Shown here piece by piece: positions 1,683-14,989 of a stretch of DNA of 14,989 nt; position 1 is the stretch's first letter, and every line of letters starts with the position of its first letter. The stretch is taken from the IMG/VR virus record IMGVR_UViG_2531839523_000008, positions 1 to 14,989 of that record; one strand, 5' to 3'. The notes below the pieces were generated by a model. The model saw only the letters and a list, made by a program, of their open reading frames with translations, had not been told where the DNA came from and searched no databases. Position numbers and translations under genes: made by a program. The DNA is from a virus (lineage: Duplodnaviria; Heunggongvirae; Uroviricota; Caudoviricetes).

Positions 1683-1710
1683 TTGACTCAGCAAGGGTTG
1701 ACCGTATAAT
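1683..1710 (+). promoter_or_regulatory. sigma70 promoter of argU (TTGACT - 16 nt - TATAAT)
   Basis: Perfect consensus -35 TTGACT (1683-1688) and -10 TATAAT (1705-1710), about 30 nt upstream of the tRNA 5' end. Confidence 0.55.
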
Positions 1711-1741
1711 TCACGCGATTACACCGCATTGCGGTATCAAC

Positions 1742-1818
1742 GCGCCCTTAGCTCAGTTGGATAGAGCAACGACCTTCTAAGTCGTGGGCCGCAGGTTCGA
1801 ATCCTGCAGGGCGCGCCA
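1742..1818 (+). tRNA. argU: tRNA-Arg (anticodon UCU)
   Basis: 77-nt sequence GCGCCCTTAGCTCAGTTGGATAGAGCAACGACCTTCTAAGTCGTGGGCCGCAGGTTCGAATCCTGCAGGGCGCGCCA with cloverleaf features, anticodon loop CU-TCT-AA and encoded CCA. Known DLP12-type prophage attachment site. Confidence 0.95.
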
Positions 1819-1833
1819 TTACAATTCAATCAG

Positions 1834-2997
1834 TTACGCCTTCTTTATATCCTCCATAATTCCAGAGTGGGACATATTTGGGACATTATCACCAAAAATG
1901 TCGTCTATTTTCCTCGCATGCTCTGTCAAATGATTAGGCGCAAGGTGAGCATACCTACGAACCATTTCTATGGACTCCCATCCGCCCATTTCCTGAAGCA
2001 CTGATAATGGGACGCCTGACTGAATCAGCCAGCTTGCCCAGGTGTGTCTGAGGTCATGGAAACGGAAATCTTCAATTCCTGCACGACGACAAGCTGATAG
2101 CCATGATGTCTTGCTGTCGATGCGCATCTTCCTGACCGCAGGCGTTGATGTTCCATCTGCTCGCTTAGCCGCCTTGGTATGTACAAACACCCATTTGTGA
2201 TGCTTGCCTATTTGATCACGCAACACTTTACAGGCGGTATCGTTCAGCGCCACACCAATGGCGCGGTTTGATTTGCTCTCTTCTGGATTCACCCAGGCAA
2301 CTCGTCGCTGCATGTCGATTTGTTGCCATTCCAGATTTATGATGTTCGACTTTCTCAGACCAGTTGCCAGCGCAAACTTGACGACAGATTTCAGTGGTTC
2401 GGGGCACTCATCAATAAGGCGTTTTGCTTCCTCCTTTTCCAGCCATCTGACTCGCTTGTTTCTGACCGCTGGTATCTTGATGACAGGCGCTTTTTCCAGC
2501 CACTTCCAGTCGCGTTCTGCAGCACGGAGAATGGCCTTTATCATGGCAAGATGCTTTGCCTTTGTCTGAGTTGATACTGGCTTTGGTTCATAAACAGGCA
2601 GTTCTTTACCTTTCCTGATGGCGGCCTGAACTTTCTGTTTCCATATTTCTTTCGTCTTTCTGTTATGCATTCTGCTTACAGCAGAGTAAATCTTTGCCTC
2701 CGAGATATCTTTAAGCCTTATACCCTCAAAATGTTCAAGCCAGAACTCAATCCGGCTTTTATCTGAATCGAGAGATTTTTTATCAGCTTTTTCCTCAAGC
2801 CATCTTAGGCAGGCCTCTTCAAAAGTGACATCAGGTAAATCCCCTAGCTTTTCTACTCGCCAGAGTTCTGCTTTTCGCTTGTCGTGCAACTCCTGAGCTT
2901 GCCGCTTGTCCTTTGTGCCAAGAGATTCCTTAATTCGTTTCCCGCCCGGGAGCGAATACGAGGCATACCATATTTCATTTCTGCGGAAGAGTGACAT
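1834..2997 (-). CDS. intD: prophage tyrosine integrase (DLP12 IntD-type)
   Basis: 387-aa ORF starting [41 protein letters not shown]-terminal catalytic region has HDLRHTWAS ... RRYAHL (R-H-R-Y signature). Gene abuts the tRNA 3' end. Confidence 0.95.
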
Positions 2998-3224
2998 TTT
3001 CTTTCCTCTGTTATGCCATCACCCGCGCTCACCTGGACAGTATGCAGCGGAGACTGAAGCGCCGCAATGCAGGCTTGCCGTGTTGTGAGGTAAGGAGATT
3101 TTGGCTTGGTTGGATCTTTACGTGTTGCCTGTAGGCGGCCTGTTCGTATCCAGTTGGTGGCGGTTGGTCTGGATATCTTAAGAAACTGACAGGCCTCATC
3201 GAGTGTGAGGCTGTATGATTCCAT
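2853..3224 (-). CDS. xis: excisionase-like HTH protein (Xis/AlpA-type); long C-terminal tail overlapping int, possibly frameshifted
   Basis: ATG at 3224..3222. N-terminal region [31 protein letters not shown] is a typical Xis/AlpA helix-turn-helix. The ORF runs 145 nt into int in another frame, which is longer than usual for xis. Confidence 0.55.
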
Positions 3225-3474
3225 GGTTACCTCTGCTTTTTGAACGCATGTCACGTAACTTCTTAATGTGTTCTGCCGTTTCGATCTCTTCTGCTATCCG
3301 ATCTGCATCAGCTTTATTCACAGGTTCAAAGTCATGATTAAAGCGGAACATGCTGGCGATACATGTTCTGCCTTTTCGGATGTAGTGAACTTTGTTGTGG
3401 GTAGAACGCAGGATTTTGCAGGGAGTGCCGTGGTGGTCGACGTACCAGGTGTTAGGAAAAATGATTCTGAACAT
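3196..3474 (-). CDS. hypothetical small prophage early protein (92 aa)
   Basis: ATG at 3474..3472 preceded by GAGGTG Shine-Dalgarno sequence; no family assigned. Confidence 0.5.
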   Translation of the reverse strand: MFRIIFPNTWYVDHHGTPCKILRSTHNKVHYIRKGRTCIASMFRFNHDFEPVNKADADRIAEEIETAEHIKKLRDMRSKSRGNHGIIQPHTR

Positions 3475-3521
3475 TTTTACACCTCAGTTGGACGATGTTG
3501 AAATTTGCTGCTTTGAGGCCA

Positions 3522-3740
3522 TCACAGTCCCCATTGTTTGTTCTTAAGTTCGATCTCCTCCTGGCAACTTGCACAAGTCCGACAACCCTGAACAGCCAGG
3601 CGTCTTCGCTCATCTATCGGATCGCCACACTCACAACAATGAGTTGCGGATACAGTCTGGTAGTTCAGACGACGCATTTTTATTGCTGTATTGCGCTGTA
3701 ATTCTTCGATTTCTGATGCCGAATCAATGATGTCTGCCAT
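3522..3740 (-). CDS. TraR/DksA-family C4 zinc-finger protein
   Basis: 72-aa ORF with C-x2-C ... C-x2-C spacing (HCCECGDPIDERRRLAVQGCRTCASC) typical of phage TraR homologues; GGAAG Shine-Dalgarno sequence upstream of ATG 3740. Confidence 0.8.
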   Translation of the reverse strand: MADIIDSASEIEELQRNTAIKMRRLNYQTVSATHCCECGDPIDERRRLAVQGCRTCASCQEEIELKNKQWGL

Positions 3741-3792
3741 CTTCCATTAATCCCTGAATTGTTGGTTAATACGCTTGAGGATGAATGCGAAC

Positions 3793-3816
3793 AATAAAAA
3801 AGGAGCCTGTAGCTCC
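3793..3816 (-). terminator. putative intrinsic terminator inside the leftward early operon
   Basis: Minus-strand hairpin GGAGC-tacag-GCTCC (plus 3802-3816) followed immediately by a T-run (plus-strand A-run 3796-3801). Confidence 0.45.
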
Positions 3817-3838
3817 CTGATGATTTTGCTTTTCATGT

Positions 3839-4150
3839 TCACCGTTCCTTAAAGACGCCGTTTAACATGCCGATCGCCAGGCTTAAATGAGTCGGTGTGA
3901 ATCCCATCAGCGTTACCGTTTCACGGTGCTTCTTCAGTACGCTACGGCAAATGTCATCGACGTTTTTATCCGGAAACTGCTGTCTGGCTTTTTTGATTTC
4001 AGAATTAGCCTGACGGGCAATGCTGCGAAGGGCGTTTTCCTGCTGAGGTGTCATTGAACAAGTCCCATGTCGGCAAGCATAAGCACACAGAATATGAAGC
4101 CCGCTGCCAGAAAAATGCATTCCGTGGCTGTCATACCGGGTCTCTCTCAT
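3839..4150 (-). CDS. hypothetical prophage early protein (103 aa)
   Basis: ATG at 4150..4148, start overlaps the stop of the upstream 63-aa ORF by 20 nt (possible translational coupling). No motif assigned. Confidence 0.45.
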   Translation of the reverse strand: MRETRYDSHGMHFSGSGLHILCAYACRHGTCSMTPQQENALRSIARQANSEIKKARQQFPDKNVDDICRSVLKKHRETVTLMGFTPTHLSLAIGMLNGVFKER

Positions 4151-4322
4151 CTGCTTCTGCTTTCGCCACCATCATTTCCAGCTTTTGTGAAAGGGATGCG
4201 GCTAACGTATGAAATTCTTCGTCTGTTTCTACTGGTATTGGCACAAACCTGACTCCAATTTGAGCAAGGCTATGTGCCATCTCAATACTCGTTCTTAACT
4301 CAACAGGAGATGCTTTGTGCAT
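4131..4322 (-). CDS. hypothetical small prophage early protein (63 aa)
   Basis: ATG at 4322..4320 with GGGAGG Shine-Dalgarno sequence 7 nt upstream. Confidence 0.5.
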   Translation of the reverse strand: MHKASPVELRTSIEMAHSLAQIGVRFVPIPVETDEEFHTLAASLSQKLEMMVAKAEADERDPV

Positions 4323-4483
4323 ACCGCCTCCCGTTTATTATTTATCTTCTCAGCCAGCCGCTGTGCTTTCAGTGGATTTCTGATAACAGAAAGGCCGGGA
4401 AATACCCAGCCTCGCTTTGTAACGGAGTAGACGAAAGTGATCGCGCCTACCCGGATATTATCGTGAGGATGCGTCATCGCCAT
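4295..4483 (-). CDS. hypothetical small protein (62 aa) overlapping the exo stop
   Basis: ATG at 4483..4481 overlaps the exo TGA (ATGGCGATGA); overlaps the next ORF by 28 nt, so one of the two may be spurious. Confidence 0.35.
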
Positions 4484-5154
4484 TGCTCCCCAAATACAAA
4501 ACCAATTTCAGCCAGTGCCTCGTCCATTTTTTCGATGAACTCCGGCACCATCTCGTTAAAACTCGCCATGTACTTTTCATCCCGCTCAACCACGACATAA
4601 TGCAGTCCTTCACGCTTCATACGCGGGTCATAGTTGGCAAAGTACCAGGCATCTTTTCGTGTCACCCACATGCTGTACTGCACCTGGGCCATGTAAGCCG
4701 ATTTTATGGCCTCGAAACCACCGAGCCGGAACTTCATGAAATCCCGGGAGGTAAACGGGCATTTCAGTTCAAGGCCGTTGCCGTCACTGCATAAACCATC
4801 GGGAGAGCAGGCGGTGCGCATACTTTCGTCGCGATAGATGATCGGGGATTCAGTAACATTCACGCCGGAAGTGAACTCAAAGAGGGCTCTGGCGTCGTTC
4901 TCGTACTGTTTTCCCCAGGCCAGCGCCTTAGCGTTAACTTCCGGAGCCACACCGGTGCAAACCTCGGCAAGCAGGGTGTGGAAGTAGGACATTTTCATGT
5001 CAGGCCATTTCTTTCCGGAGCGGGGTTTTGCTATCACATTGTGAACCTCTGAAGCGGTGATGACGCCGAGCCGTAATTTGTGCCACGCATTATCCCCCTG
5101 TTCGACAGCTCTCACGTCGATCCCGGTACGCTGCAGTATAATGTCCGGTGTCAT
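4474..5154 (-). CDS. exo: lambda-type exonuclease (Red-alpha)
   Basis: 226-aa product [21 protein letters not shown]...GFVFGEQWR is near-identical to lambda Exo as I recall it. Confidence 0.95.
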
Positions 5155-5936
5155 GCTGCCACCTTCTGCTCAGTGGCTTTCTGTTTCAGGAATCCAAGAG
5201 CTTTCACTGCTTCGGCCTGTGTCAGTTCTGACGATGCGCGAATGTCGCGGCGAAATATCTGGGAACAGAGCGGCAATAAGTCGTCATCCCATGTTTTATC
5301 CAAGGCGATCAGCAGAGTGTTAATCTCCTGCATGGTTTCATCGTTAACCGGAGTGATGTCGCGTTCCGGCTGACGTTCTGTAGTGTATGCGGTATTTTCG
5401 ACAATGCGCTCGGCTTCATCCTTGTCATAGATACCAGCAAATCCGAAGGCGAGACGGGCACACTGAATCATGGCTTTATGCCGTAACATCCGTTTGGGAT
5501 GCGACTGCCACGGGCCGGTGATTTCTCTGCCTTCGCGGGTTTTGAATGGTTCGCGTCGGCATTCATCCATCCACTCGGTAACGCAGATCGGATGATTACG
5601 GTCCTTGCGGTAAATCCGGCATGTACAGGATTCATTGTCCTGCTCAAAGTCCATGCCATCAAACTGCTGGTTTTCATTGATGATGCGGGACCATCCATCA
5701 ACGCCCACCACCGGAACGATGCCGTTCTGCTTATCAGGGAAGGCGTAAATTTCTTTCGTCCACGGATTAAGGCCGTACTGGTTGGCGACGATCAACAATG
5801 CGATGAACTGCGCATCGCTGGCATCGCCTTTAAATGCTGTCTGGCGAAGAGTGGTGATCAGTTCCTGTGGGTCGACAGAATCCATGCCGACACGTTCAGC
5901 CAGCTTCCCTGCCAGCGTTGCGAGTGCTGTACTCAT
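5151..5936 (-). CDS. bet: lambda-type single-strand annealing protein Bet (Red-beta)
   Basis: 261-aa product [66 protein letters not shown]... matches Red-beta; ATGA overlap with exo as in lambda. Confidence 0.95.
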
Positions 5937-5941
5937 CCGTT

Positions 5942-6238
5942 TTATACCTCTGAATCAATATCAACCTGATGGTGAGCAATGGTTTCAACCATGTACCGGA
6001 TGTGTTCTGCCATGCGCTCCTGAAAGTCAACATCGTCATCAAACGCACGGGTAATGGCTTTTTTGCTGGCCCCGTGGCGTTGCAAATGATCGATACATAG
6101 CGATTCAAACAGGTGCTGGTGCAGGCCTTTTTCCATGTCGTCTGCCAGTTCTGCCTCTTTCTCTTCACGGGCGATCTGCTGGTAGTGACGCGCCCAGCTC
6201 TGAGCCTCAAGACGATCCTGAATGTAATAAGCGTTCAT
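5942..6238 (-). CDS. gam: RecBCD inhibitor Gam (short GamS form)
   Basis: [39 protein letters not shown]... matches lambda GamS. The upstream in-frame extension has no canonical start codon. Confidence 0.9.
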
Positions 6239-6312
6239 GGCTGAACTCCTGAAATAGCTGTGAAAATATCGCCCGCGAAATGCCGGGCTGATTAGGTAAA
6301 CAGGAAAGGGGA

Positions 6313-6603
6313 TTAGTGATTCAGACCGTTGCCGCGCCCGTCGAGAAAAACTTCCACGAGCAAGTCGCGGGTATAAGTGCGCTCGATGCCGCGATGCAGA
6401 TAAAGCCGTCCGCGTAAATTAGCTGATGCAGTCCAGGTACCATCTTTGTGTTTGACCAGCATTCCTGGCATGACCGCACCGCGATTAACGGTCTGCGTTC
6501 CGTAATGTTGATGAACCATAAAAACTCCTGCCCGTAAGCTGGGCTGCTGAACATATAGAGACTTCTGCGCGTATTCAGGCGGTGGATGGCCGCCGGTTGT
6601 CAT
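6313..6603 (-). CDS. hypothetical protein (96 aa), first ORF downstream of the inferred PL
   Basis: ATG at 6603..6601 with GAGG about 12 nt upstream. GC-rich region with a second overlapping open frame (6321..6554), so coding status is uncertain. No arginine-rich N-like motif. Confidence 0.4.
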
Positions 6604-6799
6604 AACTAAGCCGCCTCGTTGAAGCGACTGAGGTATGAGGTGTTGAGTTGAGTTGATTTCAGCTGGTCACACCGACGTTCACGCGTCCGTTTCCCCCCTC
6701 GCACTCCCCGGAGCCTGCCGAAATTCAAGCTGCGGATCTAAGCGGTCATCGCAACGGTGAATCAGGTGGTTGCCGTATCGTTGTGTTGTTGCGACATGG

Positions 6800-6920
6800 T
6801 AATAATAGCTATTGCTATTGGCGGTATCAATACTTATAGCTATTGATTGATGTGTTTTGATATTAACTGTTTGATAGCAAAAAGAATTAATTTTGTGACT
6901 TGCATCGCATAGCGATAACT
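6800..6920 (-). promoter_or_regulatory. putative OL/PL operator-promoter region
   Basis: Palindromic sites ATAGC-TATT-GCTAT (6805-6818) and ATCGC-ATA-GCGAT (6904-6916), plus the motif TTGCTATTG (6812-6820) that recurs in the cI-cro intergenic region at 8667-8675. Position matches lambda OL/PL. Confidence 0.45.
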
Positions 6921-6968
6921 GAAGGGAGGTTGTGGTGGTTTTTTGAACGGTGTGTGATGAGGGGAGGC

Positions 6969-6995
6969 AAAAGAAAACCCGGCACGACGGCCGGG
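6969..6995 (-). terminator. intrinsic terminator ending the cI immunity transcript
   Basis: Minus-strand stem CCCGGC / GCCGGG (plus 6978-6983 and 6990-6995) with a 6-nt loop, followed immediately by TTTTCTTTT (plus-strand A-run 6969-6977); 5 nt after the stop of the 287-aa ORF. Confidence 0.6.
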
Positions 6996-6999
6996 GAAA

Positions 7000-7863
7000 T
7001 CATTTCGCATCTACAATAAATAACCTGTTTATCTGGCCTTTTTTAACAGTAGCCTTTGCGGTTATAGTGAATACTGCAGATGGATCACCTTTGGTTGATA
7101 TATATGCACTAAGAGCTCTAATATACGGGTTATTCTTCTTTCCTGCAGCTGGATCGCTAATTTCAGCAGTGATTCTCTTTTTTGAGTCATCACCATCTAA
7201 AATTATTTTAGCTGTCATATTTTGTGCATCAAATTCTGTAAGAAAAGCACGATACTCACGAAGACCGAGAACTTCATCATCATCAAGCCTATCAATTTCA
7301 GCTTTATCTCTCTCGTTAACTTTTAGAAGGCAGCCGTCAACATTTGTTGCAACACTTATCTGATCGCAAGTATTACCAATAGGTGATACTGCCTGCCTTA
7401 CAGAGGGGCGAAGCTCTACAGCCATTCGGTCAATCAAAGAGATCAACTTATCAATGGTTCCAGCATCCTTGTTTCCTAGTGCCTCTATGGCCTTTTCAAG
7501 TGACTGCTGCAAAGCTTTCATTTCATCTTTCTTGTTAGAATTTCTCGCAAAAATATATTGTAGTATTGCGCCAAGTATAGTTGCGGCGATCCCCGAGAAC
7601 AACTGGTTCTGAGTGGCGAAGTTAAGAACTGCTTCAAGAGTAAAGCAGTTAGCTTTTGCTTCGCGTGCGTAAACCTTAACTTCCTGATAATTAATGTATT
7701 TACTATATTTTTGTGTAACAGAGAAAGAAGCTGCTGTTGAGAGAACTTTAGAAAAACCCTTTAGGGATTCTCCTAGGCAGTTCAAATCTATTTCATGATT
7801 TAAAGCATCTTTTCCGTCATACCTAAGAGAGATTTTTATATCCTGTAAAGCGTCACAATCCAT
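7000..7863 (-). CDS. uncharacterised 287-aa protein with one predicted transmembrane helix; AT-rich moron in the rexAB-equivalent slot
   Basis: Uninterrupted 864-nt ORF in AT-rich DNA (roughly 35-40 % G+C by hand count of sampled lines, versus about 50 % in the red genes). ATG at 7863..7861, 66 nt downstream of the cI stop with no terminator between. Central hydrophobic segment [19 protein letters not shown]; no recognisable enzymatic motif. Confidence 0.7.
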
Positions 7864-7929
7864 AAATCGCTCTCGTCTAATTCTAATTAAATTTACTATC
7901 CCCTAAACGACTCATCAGCACAGTACTGA

Positions 7930-8622
7930 TTATCCATGTTTCCTGTACGTTTGGGGCATGCTCCCAATAACCTTACCGAAGATGAACACCCGGTTCATCT
8001 CGTCTTTCTCGATCGGGTCCCACGGTGAGTAGCTCTTGTTATCAGAGATAACCAGCAGCTTATCCTTCATCATTTGCAGGCGCTTTACATGGGCGGTGTC
8101 GTCGTACAGAAACGCATAGATGCCATCACCGTCGAAAGATTTAACCGTGATATCAACGAACAGCAGATCACCTGGTTCGATCGTTCCTGACATGCTGTCA
8201 CCACGCACGTTAATGATGCGGATATTTTCTGCCTTCCTACCATCGAACATGTGACGAGCATCGTCAAACGAGTACTCAACCGAGCGTAGAACTTCTACAA
8301 ACTCACGGTTGATGACTCCCGGCCCGGCACTCACTTCTATATCAAGAACGTCAATCTTGAAGTATTTGGGATGGTTGGCAGTAGGCTTCCCTAATTGTTG
8401 ACCGTCATTTCTCATCGGGCCTATGCCTGATGAGAGCCACTCTGTTCGAACACCCAATGCATTAGCTATTTCAACAATTTTTGTTGAGCCGCGCGCGTTG
8501 CCGCTTGTCAGTCTCCAGATTGTGGGTTGAGCTACGCCAGACGCCTTTGCAAGAGCGCCTTGAGACATTCCAGATTGTTCCATCGCTAGGTTTAAGCGAT
8601 CAGCAAGAGTTTCTTTTTTCAT
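7930..8622 (-). CDS. cI: prophage repressor cI (LexA-like, HTH + S24 peptidase domain)
   Basis: N-terminal HTH (MSQGALAKASGVAQPTIWRL), Ala-Gly autocleavage site (EVSAGPG), catalytic Ser in GDSM and Lys in HVKRL. Start trimmed from the TTG at 8658 to the ATG at 8622..8620; no Shine-Dalgarno sequence, consistent with a leaderless PRM-type transcript. Confidence 0.9.
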   Translation of the reverse strand: MKKETLADRLNLAMEQSGMSQGALAKASGVAQPTIWRLTSGNARGSTKIVEIANALGVRTEWLSSGIGPMRNDGQQLGKPTANHPKYFKIDVLDIEVSAGPGVINREFVEVLRSVEYSFDDARHMFDGRKAENIRIINVRGDSMSGTIEPGDLLFVDITVKSFDGDGIYAFLYDDTAHVKRLQMMKDKLLVISDNKSYSPWDPIEKDEMNRVFIFGKVIGSMPQTYRKHG

Positions 8623-8732
8623 AAGTTTTAATTTATACGCTTGCGTATTGATGGTCAAAACACGTTTTGCTATTGTTATGATTAATACGCATTGCTATTA
8701 TTTATTCGTTGCAATACCAATAGGAATTGATA
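8623..8732. promoter_or_regulatory. OR operator / divergent PRM-PR region between cI and cro
   Basis: 110-bp divergent intergenic region with palindrome ATACGC-TT-GCGTAT (8635-8648), half-site variant ATACGCATTGCTAT (8685-8698) and TTGCTATTG (8667-8675). Confidence 0.6.
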
Positions 8733-8960
8733 ATGACAAATCAAACCATTCAACTCGCAATCAGTATTACAGGTAGTCAAAAACGACTGGCAGATCTATG
8801 CGGTGTAGCCCAACCCACTGTTTGGCGTTGGCTACACGGTGGCGGAATTGATGCCCGCTATGTAATGAAAATTGTCTCAGCCACTGGTGGAAAGATTAAA
8901 CCAGCAGATATTCGTCCCGACCTCGCACCATTGTTTAACGCGAGTAATTCTGCCGCCTAA
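8733..8960 (+). CDS. cro: Cro-like HTH regulator (YdaS-type)
   Basis: ATG at 8733 with AGGAA Shine-Dalgarno sequence (track start 8727 is TTG). Product MTNQTIQLAISITGSQKRLADLCGVAQPTVWRWLHGG is a YdaS/Cro-type HTH; divergent from cI. Confidence 0.8.
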   Translation: MTNQTIQLAISITGSQKRLADLCGVAQPTVWRWLHGGGIDARYVMKIVSATGGKIKPADIRPDLAPLFNASNSAA

Positions 8961-8984
8961 ACTGCGGCGTTAACTGATAAGGCA

Positions 8985-9530
8985 ATGACTATGCAACCAC
9001 TTACATACCAACAGACTAGCGGATTTAGCCCGACTGCGGTGATAAATCGTTCTCAAACAAAACAAGCTCCAGGCCACGAAAAAATCCGTGATGCCGTCCG
9101 CGCCTGGTCGGCTGCAGATAATCAGGATGTTGTTGCCGCACTCATTGTGAATGAGTATCGGGAGCAGGGCGGCGGCACCATCGATTTCCCTGATGATGTC
9201 AGCCGTGCACGCCAGAAGCTGTTCCGCTTCCTCGATAACAAATTCGATTCTGAAAAATACCGAAATAACGTGCGTGAACTGACCCCGGCAATTCTGGCGG
9301 TACTACCGCTGGAATATCGCGGTTACCTGGTTGAGCAGGATAGCTTTATGGCTAGGTTGGCTGAAATGGAAAAGGAACTCAGTGAGGCAAAACAGGCTGT
9401 CATTCTCAACGCACCACGCCACCAGAAACTGAAGGAGATGAGTGAAGGCATTGTGTCGATGTTTCGAGTGGACCCGGATCTGGCTGGTCCATTGATGGCG
9501 ATGGTCACCACCATGCTGGGGGCAATATGA
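8985..9530 (+). CDS. YdaT-like protein in the cII position
   Basis: 181-aa ORF following cro; motifs EYREQGGG and LTPAILAVLP resemble Rac YdaT-family proteins as I recall them; AAGG Shine-Dalgarno sequence upstream. Confidence 0.65.
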   Translation: MTMQPLTYQQTSGFSPTAVINRSQTKQAPGHEKIRDAVRAWSAADNQDVVAALIVNEYREQGGGTIDFPDDVSRARQKLFRFLDNKFDSEKYRNNVRELTPAILAVLPLEYRGYLVEQDSFMARLAEMEKELSEAKQAVILNAPRHQKLKEMSEGIVSMFRVDPDLAGPLMAMVTTMLGAI

Positions 9531-9616
9531 CAGGTTCAAAAATGGCGAAAGTCGGTCTGCGGGAACAGAACCGACTTTCAGGTGCAAATCGTAACACACT
9601 CATTGCGGGAGGAATT

Positions 9617-10546
9617 ATGGCAAACACTGCTAAGATATTCAATTTTCCAGTGCCGGATGCGGCACAAAAGGAGCCGCGTGTGGCAGATCTCGATGATGGT
9701 TATACGCGCATTGCAAATGAGTTGCTGGAAGCTGTGATGCTGGCCGGATTAACACAGCACCAGCTTCTGGTCTTCCTGGCTGTCATGCGCAAAACATATG
9801 GCTTTAATAAAAAACTGGATTGGGTGAGCAACGAGCAACTTTCCGAGTTGACCGGGATATTGCCGCACAAGTGTTCTGCTGCAAAAAGTGTTCTGGTAAA
9901 GCGTGGGATTTTTATTCAGAGCGGGCGGAATACCGGCATTAATAATGTGGTCAGTGAATGGTCAACATTACCCGAATCAGGTAAGAAAAATAAAGTTTAC
10001 CTGAAAGAGGTAAATTTACCTGAATCAGGTAAAAAAAGTTTACCCAAATCAGGTAAAGGCGTTTACCCGAATCAGGTAAACACAAAAGACAAACTAACAA
10101 AAGACAATATAAAACCTTTTTCGTCCGAGAATTCTGGCGAATCCTCTGACCAACCAGAAAACGATCTTCCTGTGGTGAAACCGGATGCTGCAATTCAGAG
10201 CGGCAGCAAGTGGGGGACAGCAGAAGACCTGACCGCCGCAGAGTGGATGTTTGACATGGTGAAGACCATCGCGCCATCAGCCAGAAAACCGAATTTTGCA
10301 GGGTGGGCTAACGATATCCGCCTGATGCGTGAACGTGACGGACGTAACCACCGCGACATGTGCGTGCTGTTCCGCTGGGCATGCCAGGACAACTTCTGGT
10401 CCGGTAACGTGCTAAGTCCGGCCAAACTCCGCGACAAGTGGACCCAGCTCGAAATCAACCGAAACAAGCAACAGGCTGGCGTGACAGCCGGCAAACCAAA
10501 ACTCGACCTGACGAACACTGACTGGATTTACGGGGTGGAGCTATGA
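9617..10546 (+). CDS. O: replication initiator O
   Basis: ATG at 9617 with GGGAGG Shine-Dalgarno sequence (track start 9527 is an upstream extension). N-terminus MANTAKIFNF... and C-terminal half (SSENSGESSDQPENDL...WIYGVEL) closely match lambda O; internal iterons present. Confidence 0.9.
   Translation: MANTAKIFNFPVPDAAQKEPRVADLDDGYTRIANELLEAVMLAGLTQHQLLVFLAVMRKTYGFNKKLDWVSNEQLSELTGILPHKCSAAKSVLVKRGIFIQSGRNTGINNVVSEWSTLPESGKKNKVYLKEVNLPESGKKSLPKSGKGVYPNQVNTKDKLTKDNIKPFSSENSGESSDQPENDLPVVKPDAAIQSGSKWGTAEDLTAAEWMFDMVKTIAPSARKPNFAGWANDIRLMRERDGRNHRDMCVLFRWACQDNFWSGNVLSPAKLRDKWTQLEINRNKQQAGVTAGKPKLDLTNTDWIYGVEL
9968..10079. repeat. replication origin iterons inside O (about five 18-bp repeats)
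   Basis: Repeats TTTACC(C/T)(G/A)AATCAGGTAA at about 9968, 10015, 10039 and 10062, plus a degenerate copy at 9996; palindromic core CCTGAATCAGG; 23-24 bp spacing; followed by an A-rich tract (10080-10120). Encodes the repeated LPESGKK peptide. Confidence 0.8.
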
Positions 10547-11244
10547 AAAACATCGCCGCACAGATGGTTAACTTTGACTGTGAGCAGATGCGCCGGATCG
10601 CCAACAACATGCCGGAACAGTACGACGAAAAGCCACAGGTACAGCAGGTAGCGCAGATCATCAACGGTGTGTTCAGCCAGTTACTGGCAACTTTCCCGGC
10701 GAGCCTGGCTAACCGTGACCAGAATGAACTGAACGAAATCCGCCGCCAGTGGGTTCTGGCTTTCCGGGAAAACGGGATCACCACAATGGAACAGGTTAAC
10801 GCTGGAATGCGCGTAGCCCGTCGGCAGAATCGACCATTCCTGCCATCACCCGGGCAGTTTGTCGCCTGGTGCCGGGAAGAAGCATCTGTTAACGCCGGGC
10901 TGCCAAACGTCAGCGAGCTGGTTGATATGGTTTACGAGTATTGCCGGAAGCGTGGCCTGTATCCGGATGCAGAGTCTTATCCGTGGAAATCGAACGCGCA
11001 TTACTGGTTGGTTACCAACTTGTACCAGAACATGCGGGCCAATGCGCTGACTGACGCGGAATTACGGCGCAAGGCTGCCGATGAACTGTCCTGTATGACC
11101 GCGCGAATTAACCGTGGTGAGGCGATACCTGAACCAGTAAAACAACTTCCTGTCATGGGCGGTAGACCTCTAAATCGTGCACAGGCTCTGGCGAAGATCG
11201 CAGAAATCAAAGCTAAGTTCGGACTGAAAGGATCAAGTGTATGA
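10543..11244 (+). CDS. P: replication protein P (DnaB helicase loader)
   Basis: 233-aa product MKNIAAQMVNFDCEQMRRIANNMPEQYDEKPQVQQVAQIINGVF... is near-identical to lambda P; ATGA overlap with the O stop. Confidence 0.95.
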   Translation: MKNIAAQMVNFDCEQMRRIANNMPEQYDEKPQVQQVAQIINGVFSQLLATFPASLANRDQNELNEIRRQWVLAFRENGITTMEQVNAGMRVARRQNRPFLPSPGQFVAWCREEASVNAGLPNVSELVDMVYEYCRKRGLYPDAESYPWKSNAHYWLVTNLYQNMRANALTDAELRRKAADELSCMTARINRGEAIPEPVKQLPVMGGRPLNRAQALAKIAEIKAKFGLKGSSV

Positions 11245-11543
11245 CGGGCAAAGAGGCAATTATTCATTACCTGGGGACGCATAAGAGCTTCTGTGCACAG
11301 GACGTTGCCGCGGTAACAGGTGCAACCGTAACCAGCATAAATCAGGCTGCGGCTAAAATGGCGCGGGCAGGAATCCTGGTCGTTGATGGTAAGGTCTGGC
11401 GAACGGTGTATTACCGGTTCGCTACCAGAGAAGAACGGGAAGGAAAGGTGAGCACGAATCTGATTTTTAAGGAGTGTCGCCAGAGTGCCGCGATGAAACG
11501 GGTACTGAGGGTATATAAAAGAACATCAATGGGAACACAATGA
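11241..11543 (+). CDS. ren: Ren protein (intact)
   Basis: MTGKEAIIHYLGTHKSFCAQDVAAVTGATVTSINQAAAKMARAGILVVDGKVWRTVYYRFATREEREGK matches lambda Ren; ATGA overlap with P. Confidence 0.9.
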   Translation: MTGKEAIIHYLGTHKSFCAQDVAAVTGATVTSINQAAAKMARAGILVVDGKVWRTVYYRFATREEREGKVSTNLIFKECRQSAAMKRVLRVYKRTSMGTQ

Positions 11544-11610
11544 TGAAACAGGTGAGTTGAGTTCAAACTGTAGTACAATTCTCTCCAGTTTGAACAGGAA
11601 AGAATATGCT

Positions 11611-11943
11611 ATGAACCCTTATATTTATCTTGGTGGTGCAATACTTGCAGAGGTCATTGGTACAACCTTAATGAAGTTTTCAGAAGGTTTTACACGGTTA
11701 TGGCCATCTGTTGGTACAATTATTTGTTATTGTGCATCATTCTGGTTATTAGCTCAGACGCTGGCTTATATTCCTACAGGGATTGCTTATGGTATCTGGT
11801 CAGGAGTCGGTATTGTCCTGATTAGCTTACTGTCATGGGGATTTTTCGGCCAACGGCTGGACCTGCCAGCCATTATAGGCATGATGTTGCTTTGTGCCGG
11901 TGTGTTGGTTATTAATTTATTGTCACGAAGCACACCACATTAA
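11611..11943 (+). CDS. emrE: small multidrug resistance efflux transporter EmrE
   Basis: ATG at 11611 (MNPYIYLGGAILAEVIGTTLMKFSEGF..., 110 aa, four TM helices) with AGGAAA Shine-Dalgarno sequence; track start 11557 is an upstream extension. Confidence 0.9.
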   Translation: MNPYIYLGGAILAEVIGTTLMKFSEGFTRLWPSVGTIICYCASFWLLAQTLAYIPTGIAYGIWSGVGIVLISLLSWGFFGQRLDLPAIIGMMLLCAGVLVINLLSRSTPH

Positions 11944-11973
11944 AATAATTTGTTTCTAAACGACTAAAATATG

Positions 11974-12014
11974 GAGGCTCTTATATTTATATGAGCCTCG
12001 TTTTATGCTTTTTG
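11974..12014 (+). terminator. intrinsic terminator after emrE
   Basis: Stem GAGGCTC / GAGCCTC (11974-11980 and 11993-11999) with a 12-nt AT loop, followed by GTTTTATGCTTTTTG. Confidence 0.55.
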
Positions 12015-12197
12015 TTAATGTCTTTATTTTTTATGTATTCTTTTGTGCTTTCAAGATTATGGCGTAAGAAAATTGCAATACGATTATTGTTGTATATTCA
12101 AGATAATGTGACCTTAATTGTCTTTTTAAATAAAAATTAAACAAAAATTATATCCCACCACTAAGGTTTATAAAAGCATACGTTAGCAGGTGTCACC

Positions 12198-13724
12198 ATG
12201 AAAAAAGCCATAGCATATATGCGATTTTCATCACCAGGTCAGATGTCTGGCGACTCATTAAACCGACAGAGAAGACTTATTGCTGAATGGTTAAAGGTAA
12301 ATAGTGATTATTATCTTGATACCATAACATATGAAGATTTAGGATTAAGTGCATTCAAAGGAAAGCATGCACAATCAGGAGCTTTTTCGGAATTTTTAGA
12401 TGCTATAGAGCATGGTTATATATTGCCAGGAACTACATTGTTAGTTGAAAGTCTGGACAGACTTTCAAGAGAAAAAGTCGGTGAAGCGATTGAACGTCTG
12501 AAATTGATTTTGAATCACGGTATTGATGTTATAACTCTTTGCGACAATACAGTCTATAATATTGACTCTTTGAATGAGCCATATTCATTAATAAAAGCCA
12601 TACTTATAGCACAAAGGGCAAATGAAGAAAGCGAGATAAAGTCAAGTCGGGTTAAATTATCATGGAAGAAAAAACGGCAGGATGCACTGGAATCAGGTAC
12701 GATTATGACGGCGTCTTGTCCGAGATGGCTCTCCTTAGATGACAAAAGAACGGCTTTTGTTCCAGACCCCGACAGGGTGAAAACTATTGAGCTAATTTTT
12801 AAACTCAGGATGGAAAGGCGCTCATTGAATGCAATAGCCAAGTATTTAAATGATCATGCTGTAAAGAATTTCTCAGGAAAAGAAAGTGTATGGGGACCTT
12901 CTGTAATTGAAAAATTATTAGCGAATAAAGCTCTGATAGGTATATGCGTACCTTCATATCGTGCAAGAGGGAAAGGGATAAGTGAAATCGCTGGTTATTA
13001 TCCCAGAGTCATATCAGATGATTTGTTTTACGCTGTACAGGAAATTCGGTTGGCACCTTTTGGTATTAGCAATAGTAGCAAGAATCCTATGCTAATAAAT
13101 CTACTTCGAACAGTTATGAAGTGTGAGGCTTGTGGTAATACCATGATTGTTCATGCGGTATCTGGAAGTTTGCATGGCTATTATGTTTGTCCGATGAGAA
13201 GATTACATCGATGTGACAGGCCATCAATAAAAAGAGATTTGGTTGATTATAATATCATTAATGAATTGCTTTTTAATTGTAGCAAAATTCAACCAGTTGA
13301 AAACAAGAAAGATGCTAATGAAACTTTAGAGTTAAAAATTATTGAGCTTCAGATGAAAATTAATAATTTAATCGTTGCATTGTCTGTCGCGCCTGAAGTT
13401 ACCGCTATAGCAGAGAAAATAAGACTATTAGATAAGGAATTACGAAGGGCTTCGGTATCATTGAAAACTTTGAAGAGTAAAGGTGTAAATTCATTCAGTG
13501 ATTTTTATGCTATTGACTTAACCAGTAAAAATGGACGAGAGTTATGCCGTACACTTGCCTATAAAACATTCGAAAAAATCATAATTAATACGGATAATAA
13601 AACCTGTGATATCTATTTTATGAATGGCATTGTTTTTAAACACTATCCTTTAATGAAAGTAATATCCGCCCAGCAGGCGATAAGTGCTCTCAAATATATG
13701 GTTGATGGTGAGATTTATTTCTAA
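12198..13724 (+). CDS. ybcK: large serine recombinase (DLP12 YbcK-type)
   Basis: 508-aa ORF; N-terminal resolvase-type catalytic motif AYMRFSSPGQ (nucleophilic Ser); Cys-rich segment (CEACGNTMIVHAV...YYVCP...HRCD) consistent with a recombinase zinc ribbon; AT-rich gene; AGGTG Shine-Dalgarno sequence. Confidence 0.9.
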   Translation: MKKAIAYMRFSSPGQMSGDSLNRQRRLIAEWLKVNSDYYLDTITYEDLGLSAFKGKHAQSGAFSEFLDAIEHGYILPGTTLLVESLDRLSREKVGEAIERLKLILNHGIDVITLCDNTVYNIDSLNEPYSLIKAILIAQRANEESEIKSSRVKLSWKKKRQDALESGTIMTASCPRWLSLDDKRTAFVPDPDRVKTIELIFKLRMERRSLNAIAKYLNDHAVKNFSGKESVWGPSVIEKLLANKALIGICVPSYRARGKGISEIAGYYPRVISDDLFYAVQEIRLAPFGISNSSKNPMLINLLRTVMKCEACGNTMIVHAVSGSLHGYYVCPMRRLHRCDRPSIKRDLVDYNIINELLFNCSKIQPVENKKDANETLELKIIELQMKINNLIVALSVAPEVTAIAEKIRLLDKELRRASVSLKTLKSKGVNSFSDFYAIDLTSKNGRELCRTLAYKTFEKIIINTDNKTCDIYFMNGIVFKHYPLMKVISAQQAISALKYMVDGEIYF

Positions 13725-13922
13725 ATAATGATCTCGGATTTTAAGTTATGCTATGGTGATAAAGTGCAAGACAGAATTAATTATCTTTGACGAAACTTAA
13801 TGGGTAATTACTTTGTTTGCTCCCACAAGCGAGTTTTGTACGGCTGTATTGGGGTAGTAAATGAGCTATACAATCTTAATCATTTGTTAGGTGAGAACTC
13901 TTGGTCGCAGATTCAAATACTG

Positions 13923-13972
13923 AAAATACGTGACAAATTATTATGAGCAAAATGGTGTATGTCACGTATTTT
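13923..13972. repeat. 13-bp perfect inverted repeat with 24-bp spacer in the ybcK-ybcL intergenic region
   Basis: AAAATACGTGACA (13923-13935) and TGTCACGTATTTT (13960-13972) are exact reverse complements. Confidence 0.6.
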
Positions 13973-14105
13973 GAATGGTAGGTTAAAAAATAACACCGAC
14001 TTTCGTAGGTATTACTAATAATAAAGCAGAGTTTTTAGATAGTATCAATGTGCTTTGTGTATATTGTGGCAAATAATTGGGTTGGGGGTACAATTGTGAT
14101 TGCTT

Positions 14106-14135
14106 TTGCATGAACATTGCGCCTTTATGCATAAT
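14106..14135 (+). promoter_or_regulatory. candidate sigma70 promoter for ybcL (TTGCAT - 18 nt - CATAAT)
   Basis: Motifs at 14106-14111 and 14130-14135, about 55 nt upstream of the ybcL ATG; by-eye match only. Confidence 0.3.
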
Positions 14136-14188
14136 GAGATAAAGGAATATCAAATAAAATAACGATAGGTCATAACAAAGAGGTTTTT

Positions 14189-14656
14189 ATGAAAACACTT
14201 ATCGTTTCAACTGTATTGGCATTCATAACATTTTCTGCGCAGGCTGCAGCATTTCAGGTCACTAGTAATGAAATAAAAACAGGAGAGCAACTTACAACGT
14301 CTCATGTCTTTTCTGGATTTGGGTGTGAAGGTGGTAATACATCGCCCTCATTAACCTGGTCTGGTGTTCCTGAAGGTACCAAAAGCTTTGCCGTAACTGT
14401 ATATGATCCAGATGCACCTACAGGCAGTGGTTGGTGGCATTGGACTGTTGTTAATATTCCAGCAACAGTAACATATTTGCCCGTTGATGCAGGGAGACGT
14501 GATGGAACAAAACTGCCGACTGGTGCTGTTCAAGGCCGAAATGATTTTGGCTATGCTGGGTTTGGTGGCGCATGTCCTCCTAAAGGAGATAAACCACATC
14601 ATTACCAGTTTAAAGTATGGGCTCTAAAAACTGAAAAGATTCCTGTAGATTCTTAG
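14189..14656 (+). pseudogene. ybcL: ybcL (PEBP/RKIP-family periplasmic protein) truncated at its 3' end by IS2
   Basis: Signal peptide MKTLIVSTVLAFITFSAQAAA and PEBP-like body. ORF ends at codon 155 with a TAG (14654-14656) formed by the first bases of the IS2 terminal repeat; as I recall, K-12 YbcL is about 28 residues longer. Confidence 0.75.
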
Positions 14657-14989
14657 ACTGCCCCCCTGAATCTCCAGACAACCAGTATCACTTAAATAAG
14701 TGATAGTCTTAATACTAGTTTTTAGACTAGTCATTGGAGAACAGATGATTGATGTCTTAGGGCCGGAGAAACGCAGACGGCGTACCACACAGGAAAAGAT
14801 CGCAATTGTTCAGCAGAGCTTTGAACCGGGGATGACGGTCTCCCTCGTTGCCCGGCAACATGGTGTAGCAGCCAGCCAGTTATTTCTCTGGCGTAAGCAA
14901 TACCAGGAAGGAAGTCTTACTGCTGTCGCCGCCGGAGAACAGGTTGTTCCTGCCTCTGAACTTGCTGCCGCCATGAAGCAGATTAAAGA
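14654..14989 (+). mobile_element. IS2 (IS3 family), left end; continues beyond window
   Basis: Terminal repeat TAGACTGCCCCCCTGAATCTCCAGACAACCAGTATCACTTAA matches the IS2 IRL from memory, followed by orfA (insC). Confidence 0.85.
14745..14989 (+). CDS. insC: IS2 OrfA (InsC) transposase HTH protein, N-terminal part (truncated by window edge)
   Basis: [81 protein letters not shown] matches IS2 InsC; GGAGAA Shine-Dalgarno sequence upstream. Confidence 0.9.

Follow-up and report, generated by a model that had tools for sequence, protein, structure and literature searches.

The window analysed here, the whole 14,989-nucleotide stretch, carries a lambdoid prophage integrated at the argU tRNA gene. 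Its left flank holds fimZ and a DLP12-type integrase and its right flank holds emrE, ybcK, and ybcL, identities that we take in part from the layout of this site in E. coli K-12. The leftward order beyond exo is genes for DUF1317 and DUF1382 proteins, an orf61-like gene, a TraR/DksA-like gene, xis, and int; the rightward order is a YdaS-like cro, a YdaT-like cII, O, P, and ren. The region of interest, 6239-6968, is 95-97% identical to phages Perceval, 4A7, 4C10, 1W, 3W, and the PhiR phages (genus Bievrevirus). This near-identity to sequenced phages indicates that the architecture is that of working phages, and not merely that of a decayed prophage. The features are as follows:

1742-1818: argU tRNA, the prophage insertion site and the sole Rfam match in the window at gathering thresholds
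3800-3818, minus strand: earliest convincing intrinsic terminator along the early-left operon, an 8-bp stem with TTTTTATT
4474-5154, minus strand: exo, 3′ of bet
5151-5936, minus strand: bet, 3′ of gam
5942-6238, minus strand: gam (PF06064, E 1e-63)
6313-6519, minus strand: kil, KilR-type, 68 aa (phrog_294, PF27398)
6520-6637, minus strand: proximal part of the leader, a homologue of the phi80 tL1 region, with CAUACCUCA ahead of hairpin 1
6544-6530, minus strand: hairpin 3, adjoining the Shine-Dalgarno (SD) sequence AGGAG at 6529-6525
6594-6578, minus strand: hairpin 2, GGCGG-CCAUCCA-CCGCC, followed by a conserved block
between hairpins 1 and 2, minus strand: conserved linker UUAGUUAUGAC, containing ATG 6603
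6629-6609, minus strand: hairpin 1, holding an SD-like GAGG that precedes the conserved AUG 6603
6606-6728, minus strand: arginine-rich 40-codon frame, starting MNFGRLRGVRGGKRTRERRCDQ, with the motif ..RGGKRTRERRCDQLK..
6638-6795, minus strand: distal leader, C-rich in its 5′ part, G-rich in the middle, and carrying a (TCAAC)n tract
6656-6642, minus strand: (TCAAC)x3, which reads (GTTGA)x3 on the plus strand, at the junction of distal and proximal leader
6802-6845, minus strand: PL/OL, with -35 TTGATA (6830-6825) and -10 TATTAT (6807-6802), a 10/12 match
6978-6995, minus strand: intrinsic terminator of the cI/rex-slot (immunity) transcript, a 6-bp all-G-C stem, then TTTTCTTTTG, just upstream of PL
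7000-7863, minus strand: rex-slot gene, flanked by cI and PL (DUF7946/DUF7947, E 4e-55 and 1e-18)
7930-8658, minus strand: cI (Peptidase_S24 and HTH)

An initial annotation of this region had remarked that no recognisable N antiterminator lies between PL and gam. That observation is confirmed, there is no nut site either, and the features it listed are present where it placed them. The immunity terminator that it put at 6969-6995 was found on the minus strand at 6995-6978, as six G-C pairs and a T run. Upstream of it, the rex-slot gene also gives a weak PADLOC match to PDC-S42 (E 1.5e-4). In relatives the slot holds SIR2 (O157:H7, Z570), ASCH together with a hypothetical protein (4A7), or two other genes (Perceval), and it looks like a swappable defence slot.

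PL is the top sigma-70 match within 3500-9200, a scan of 5.7 kb. Three CAATAGC half-sites overlap it (6845-6839, 6820-6814, and 6814-6808) and another copy lies at PR (8675-8669); these four are among six copies in the whole window, against 2.2 expected. Relatives carry three distinct PL/operator types, and in all three the junction with the common leader falls no more than a few bases from the predicted +1, which is placed at about 6795 (±2). The promoter match, the half-site shared with PR, and this leader junction give good support to the PL that had been proposed. The 11-codon mini-ORF described in the leader (MSQQHNDTATT) is present, starting at 6797, with its ATG at or just before the predicted +1. 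It is not a conserved feature, because the ATG is missing from both other PL types that share the leader. From the immunity terminator down to 6603 there is, as had been noted, no minus-strand ORF of at least 60 aa. The GC-richness that had been described is only modest: 6560-6799 has 54-59% GC, compared with some 50% in the adjacent genes and 30-39% in the PL/operator stretch (6800-6979).

That first ORF, a 96-aa frame at 6313-6603, had been proposed as an accessory gene of unknown function in the kil slot. The slot is correct, and the family can be named: a profile search assigns the frame to phrog_294 ("Kil protein for bacterial septation inhibition") with E 1e-38 over residues 20-96. The 68-aa form read from ATG 6519 matches the same family with E 1.3e-37 over residues 1-68, the full conserved domain. 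PF27398 is a precomputed assignment on kil homologues, and a Pfam scan reported no other Pfam family for the product, lambda Kil included. The product is thus a KilR-type Kil and is predicted, from annotation and from the literature on its relatives, to be a cell-division (FtsZ) inhibitor.

The conserved Kil protein probably begins at ATG 6519, a correction to the start at 6603 given in the initial annotation. This Met is where the homologues in Enterobacter, Klebsiella, Citrobacter, HK225, HK639, and KO-TP1 begin, and 5′ of it their sequence is different. RefSeq phage records and PGAP also start kil at 6519; PGAP calls a 207-nt gene in O157:H7 and leaves 6520-6645 unannotated in 2322 E. coli genomes. 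An AGGAG stands 5 nt upstream of this ATG. Reading from 6603 would add a non-conserved extension of 28 codons. Across 84 distinct relatives, diversity at codon positions 1, 2, and 3 of the kil frame is 0.0075, 0.014, and 0.073, as opposed to 0.021, 0.005, and 0.013, with no third-position excess, in the extension. To judge from this pattern, the kil frame is genuinely coding, and the earlier suspicion that the 96-aa frame might not encode protein stands for the extension and falls for the 68-aa part. The second open frame reported across the ORF does exist (77 aa, 6321-6554), but it has no family match in domain and profile searches.

Early expression in lambdoid phages classically proceeds through N and nut sites or, in HK022, through put. 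Here, the first gene after PL is not N-like: where a small basic protein with an N-terminal arginine-rich motif was sought, there is only the 40-codon arginine-rich frame, and no leader frame matches a family in Pfam or PHROG. The search for boxA and boxB that had been proposed is negative. Sequences resembling boxA (YGCTCTTTA-like) are absent from the PL and PR operons, the window as a whole holding five matches with at most one mismatch where 6.8 are expected by chance, and the PL transcript from 6800 to 3000 holds no boxB-type hairpin (5-bp stem, GNRA-like pentaloop). The full annotation of 4A7 lists a Q-like antiterminator and no N.

RNA-mediated antitermination of the HK022 type, in which put RNA acts in cis via the beta-prime zinc-binding domain of RNA polymerase, was addressed with a covariance model. 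The model was built from seven sequences: putL and putR of HK022, putL of HK639, and sites in CobraSix, S9-5, phiEt88, and UPF_BP1 that were found by similarity to HK639 putL. It scores 45-95 bits on known put sites. It also detects put RNA in two Siccibacter colletis prophages (L103 910-997 and L109 330-417) at 105.8 bits, above every model-building sequence scanned. In the window leader it gives no match at E values up to 10, and nowhere in the 49-kb genome of the related phage 4A7 does it exceed 9.2 bits. The suggestion of a put-like RNA "as in HK022" consequently fails as a statement of family membership.

Comparison with other phages shows that the leader, which runs about 275 nt from the predicted +1 to kil, is bipartite, with a family-specific distal part (6795-6638) and a proximal part (6637-6520) of tL1 type. 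The proximal element has homologues in the phages HK639, HK225, KO-TP1, and phi80 and also in Citrobacter, Enterobacter, Huaxiibacter, and Siccibacter prophages; 12 divergent loci were compared. Hairpin 1 shows compensatory changes at 5/9 pairs, with 95% of cells paired; none of 500 shuffles reaches the observed level, and slid controls are 35-54% paired. Invariant G-U pairs of hairpin 1 fix the structure on the PL-sense RNA. The element covariance model agrees in strand, scoring 62-92 bits in sense and 16-31 bits in antisense orientation, with 91.3 bits in the window and 67.6 bits in phi80. An invariant UUAUGA(C) lies 3′ of hairpin 1 and is followed by hairpin 2, the conserved block, and a small hairpin by the SD of the next gene. 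That gene is kil in the window and in HK225, and something else in the other loci.

AUG 6603 and the bases that follow (6578-6600, encoding MTTGGHPPP, a polyproline start) are conserved across genera at the nucleotide level. A uORF from ATG 6603 was considered as a conserved protein or a simple coupling device and was rejected, as its peptide, frame, and stop position vary across the 12 loci; its length ranges from 11 to 96 codons, and in three loci a 5-nt deletion alters the peptide. Because peptide and length vary while the nucleotides are kept, conservation acts on the RNA, and 6637-6520 is best regarded as a conserved structured RNA element, not as coding sequence. No promoter was found within it by scan or by eye, no Rfam family matches it on the sense strand, and no literature on it was found. 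At relaxed thresholds the sole notable Rfam match, to the ALIL pseudoknot (RF01497) at 6568-6674 on the plus strand, antisense to PL, scores 24.9 bits where the cut-off is 50 (E 2.4e-4); hairpin 2 contributes most of that score, and the match is considered spurious. HK022 contains a weak match to the element model (L003 4440-4488, minus strand; 19.7 bits, E 0.0045), in PL orientation and next to IS903, which may be a degraded copy.

What lies immediately upstream of the element differs. In all 12 other loci (11 aligned, and phi80), a G-C hairpin with a T run, annotated as tL1A in phi80, stands directly 5′ of CATACC, and in the window (TCAAC)3 takes that place. The window family thus lacks both the antiterminator module and its terminator. 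The pentamer repeat had been recorded in the initial annotation as (GTTGA)x3 at 6642-6656 and is present there. Its copy number differs among near-identical relatives: three in the window and in loci L017, L024, and L034, and two in most. Each copy step shifts the frame that links the arginine-rich ORF to kil.

The distal leader was found in only 16 phage records, all from E. coli and all at least 94% identical (DLP12/Bievrevirus-type). It is present in 2210/5426 complete E. coli genomes (41%), O157:H7 among them, at 95% identity or more in nearly all, and is never annotated; literature searches by sequence string and by topic returned nothing on it. Under operator types A and B the conserved sequence begins at the predicted +1, and type C has other sequence in place of the first ~43 nt. 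Diversity is 0.022 in 6728-6657 versus 0.073 at kil third codon positions. The fold of the leader is no more stable than that of shuffled sequence (z = +0.79), and folds of PL types A and C reveal no convincing common structure. Local alignment to the HK639, HK225, and HK022 leaders gives nothing above shuffles, a 15/19 match at the 5′ end included. In 6675-6616 the ratio of C to G reaches 2.2, which places this tract no lower than the window's 95th percentile.

Downstream, the PL strand has one convincing terminator, at 3818-3800; the orf61-like gene precedes it, and the TraR/DksA-like gene, xis, and int follow. A scan of 1700-4500 for sigma-70-like promoters was negative. The plus strand has no intrinsic-terminator-like site anywhere beyond PR (8700-14989, the window's last position; cro, cII-like, O, P, ren, emrE, ybcK, and ybcL). 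In 4A7, an opposite-strand esterase gene sits between the cro-to-ybcL block and Q.

These observations are accommodated by an early-left operon that, in DLP12-type (Bievrevirus-like) lambdoid prophages, would be N-independent as far as the terminator at 3818-3800, a reading for which confidence and doubt are about evenly balanced. It is favoured because N, nut, and put are absent, the tL1A-type terminator is missing, and the early operons are poor in terminators; that the family is functional follows from the 16 sequenced phage records carrying this exact leader. On loss of repressor, RNA polymerase would start at PL near 6795 and cross the leader straight into kil, gam, bet, and exo. With N, nutL, putL, and the tL1A-type terminator all absent, no dedicated antiterminator would be encoded or needed here. 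The proximal element would serve as the kil 5′ UTR, and the distal half would be a family-specific leader. The terminator at 3818-3800 would limit, and probably leak, transcription into the TraR-like gene, xis, and int. Leakage at this site would be enough for excision, and nothing else would antiterminate. The initial annotation had left three options, with antitermination absent, provided elsewhere, or RNA-based; absence is the favoured one, and an RNA of the HK022 type is not supported.

Three considerations weigh against N-independence. Read-through is required at 3818-3800 with no promoter before xis and int; as the phages are inducible, something must carry transcription through that terminator. 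The distal leader looks constrained, in its low diversity, its sharp start at +1, and its presence in 41% of genomes, and such constraint points to a function. Finally, an untranslated leader of 275 nt with C-rich tracts should be exposed to Rho.

In a rival reading, unlikely though far from negligible, the distal leader (6795-6638) would be a new cis-acting processive antiterminator RNA, put-like in action and unrelated to put in sequence. RNA polymerase would then be modified promoter-proximally and would pass both Rho sites and 3818-3800. Consistent with this, the distal leader is conserved right from the predicted +1 behind two heteroimmune types of PL, its diversity is below that of the synonymous-like sites of kil, and its copies are nearly all at least 95% identical across the 2210 E. 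coli genomes that carry it. The division of the operon from xis and int by a terminator with no promoter after it fits as well. Its position is that of put in HK639, and likewise that of putL in HK022 (Hwang et al. 2022, PMC9378689). However, the put covariance model does not match it, its fold stability is that of shuffles, and its resemblance to the leaders of HK639, HK225, and HK022 does not exceed chance; the element also persists where PL type C swaps the first ~43 nt, and the distal leader sequences are too alike for any covariation test. For the present it is rather doubtful that the distal leader founds a cis-acting RNA class of its own, one that does the work of put and makes polymerase termination-resistant. 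The exposure to Rho may instead be the purpose of the leader, as a Rho-dependent attenuator like the phi80 tL1B-type region that keeps toxic kil and the genes downstream low, in which case the element would concern termination and not antitermination. The homologous phi80 element does lie between tL1A and the annotated Rho-dependent tL1B, the window leader is long and apparently untranslated with C-rich, G-poor tracts, and Rho reportedly silences rac kilR (Cardinale et al. 2008). The phi80 tL1B site is nevertheless ~110 nt past the element, in sequence that is not conserved in the window, and the C/G bias is only moderate, which leaves attenuation quite improbable. An antiterminator RNA and Rho attenuation are not mutually exclusive.

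In a further rival reading, the arginine-rich frame at 6728-6606, which the initial annotation overlooked, would encode a short N-like peptide or be an N remnant, shortened by the same deletion that took out tL1A. Its position, immediately 5′ of the tL1-type element, is the N slot, and its KRTRERR resembles the arginine-rich motif of N proteins, which in lambda N is RRRERR. A motif of the R.RERR type arises in only 65 of 20,000 leader shuffles, a pattern chosen after the sequence had been seen, but the general R/K richness of the frame is not unusual (p = 0.09), and a CG-rich hairpin, CGGACGCGUGAACGUCGG, falls on the arginine codons. Most relatives have a GTG start with GGAG ahead of it, which one gene caller used (P0010); the same codon is GGG in the window, where the remaining starts have a poor SD or poor spacing. 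With (TCAAC)x2, as in most relatives, the frame is fused in frame to kil to give 139 codons, the whole of which is annotated as Kil in Perceval. The C-terminus hence varies with TCAAC copy number, and about a quarter of relatives have a stop codon in the frame. Only eight of its sites vary, without a clear coding signal. A mini-N would find neither boxA nor boxB to act on, and neither tblastn nor a degenerate DNA pattern in IMG/VR revealed relatives outside the phage family, 95 of the 119 pattern matches belonging to that family and the other 24 being unrelated. That this frame is a working or vestigial N is accordingly very improbable.

On the N-independent reading, the region represents a third arrangement of lambdoid early control, with neither an antiterminator nor a tL1A-type terminator. 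Nor is this N-less form rare: phages that are viable (4A7, Perceval, and others) have it, as do some 41% of complete E. coli genomes. It raises the question of how toxic kil is controlled and how transcription passes a good terminator to reach xis and int. If a new antiterminator RNA did reside in this, the commonest lambdoid prophage family of E. coli, it would explain the passage of 3818-3800 to xis and int. The analysis also brings to light a conserved structured RNA with compensatory changes, shared with the phi80 tL1 region.

Compared with lambda, the operon has the same order and orientation, an operator-overlapped PL, and the gam-bet-exo-orf60a/63/61 block; it differs in being without N, nutL, ral, sieB, and cIII, and its Kil is of the KilR family (phrog_294). 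In phi80, the order is PL, nutL (boxA TGCTTTTTA), N, the Rho-independent tL1A, the element, tL1B (annotated as Rho-dependent), small ORFs, and kil. A KilR-type kil downstream of PL and the structured element are common to both, the alignment reaching the SD of the next gene. In contrast, phi80 has N (98 aa), nutL, and tL1A upstream of the element, whereas the window has none of the three and its element abuts kil. PL leaders homologous to the phi80 nutL leader (boxA UGCUUUUUAACAA) occur in HK225, KO-TP1, and several Enterobacter and Huaxiibacter prophages (L004 1739-2034, L005 2295-2542, L112, L116, L118, and L239 1770-1980). The first ~60 nt of these prophage and phage leaders recur in the HK639 leader, 5′ of its putL.

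HK022 and HK639 are, like the window prophage, lambdoid without N, and a leader function would sit right after PL in each; the put sequence and structure are theirs and have no counterpart in the window. HK639 also shares the layout of cI, YdaS-like cro, and YdaT-like cII, as well as kil, gam, and the tL1-type element, upstream of which it carries putL, as the Siccibacter prophages do. HK639 keeps terminators in the operon, whereas the tL1A one is absent from the window family. The cryptic prophage DLP12 of K-12 has the same argU site, fimZ, intD-type integrase, emrE, ybcK, and ybcL. The window prophage presumably differs from that remnant in keeping exo-bet-gam-kil, the immunity region, and O/P, and its close relatives, for example 4A7 and Perceval, are viable phages.
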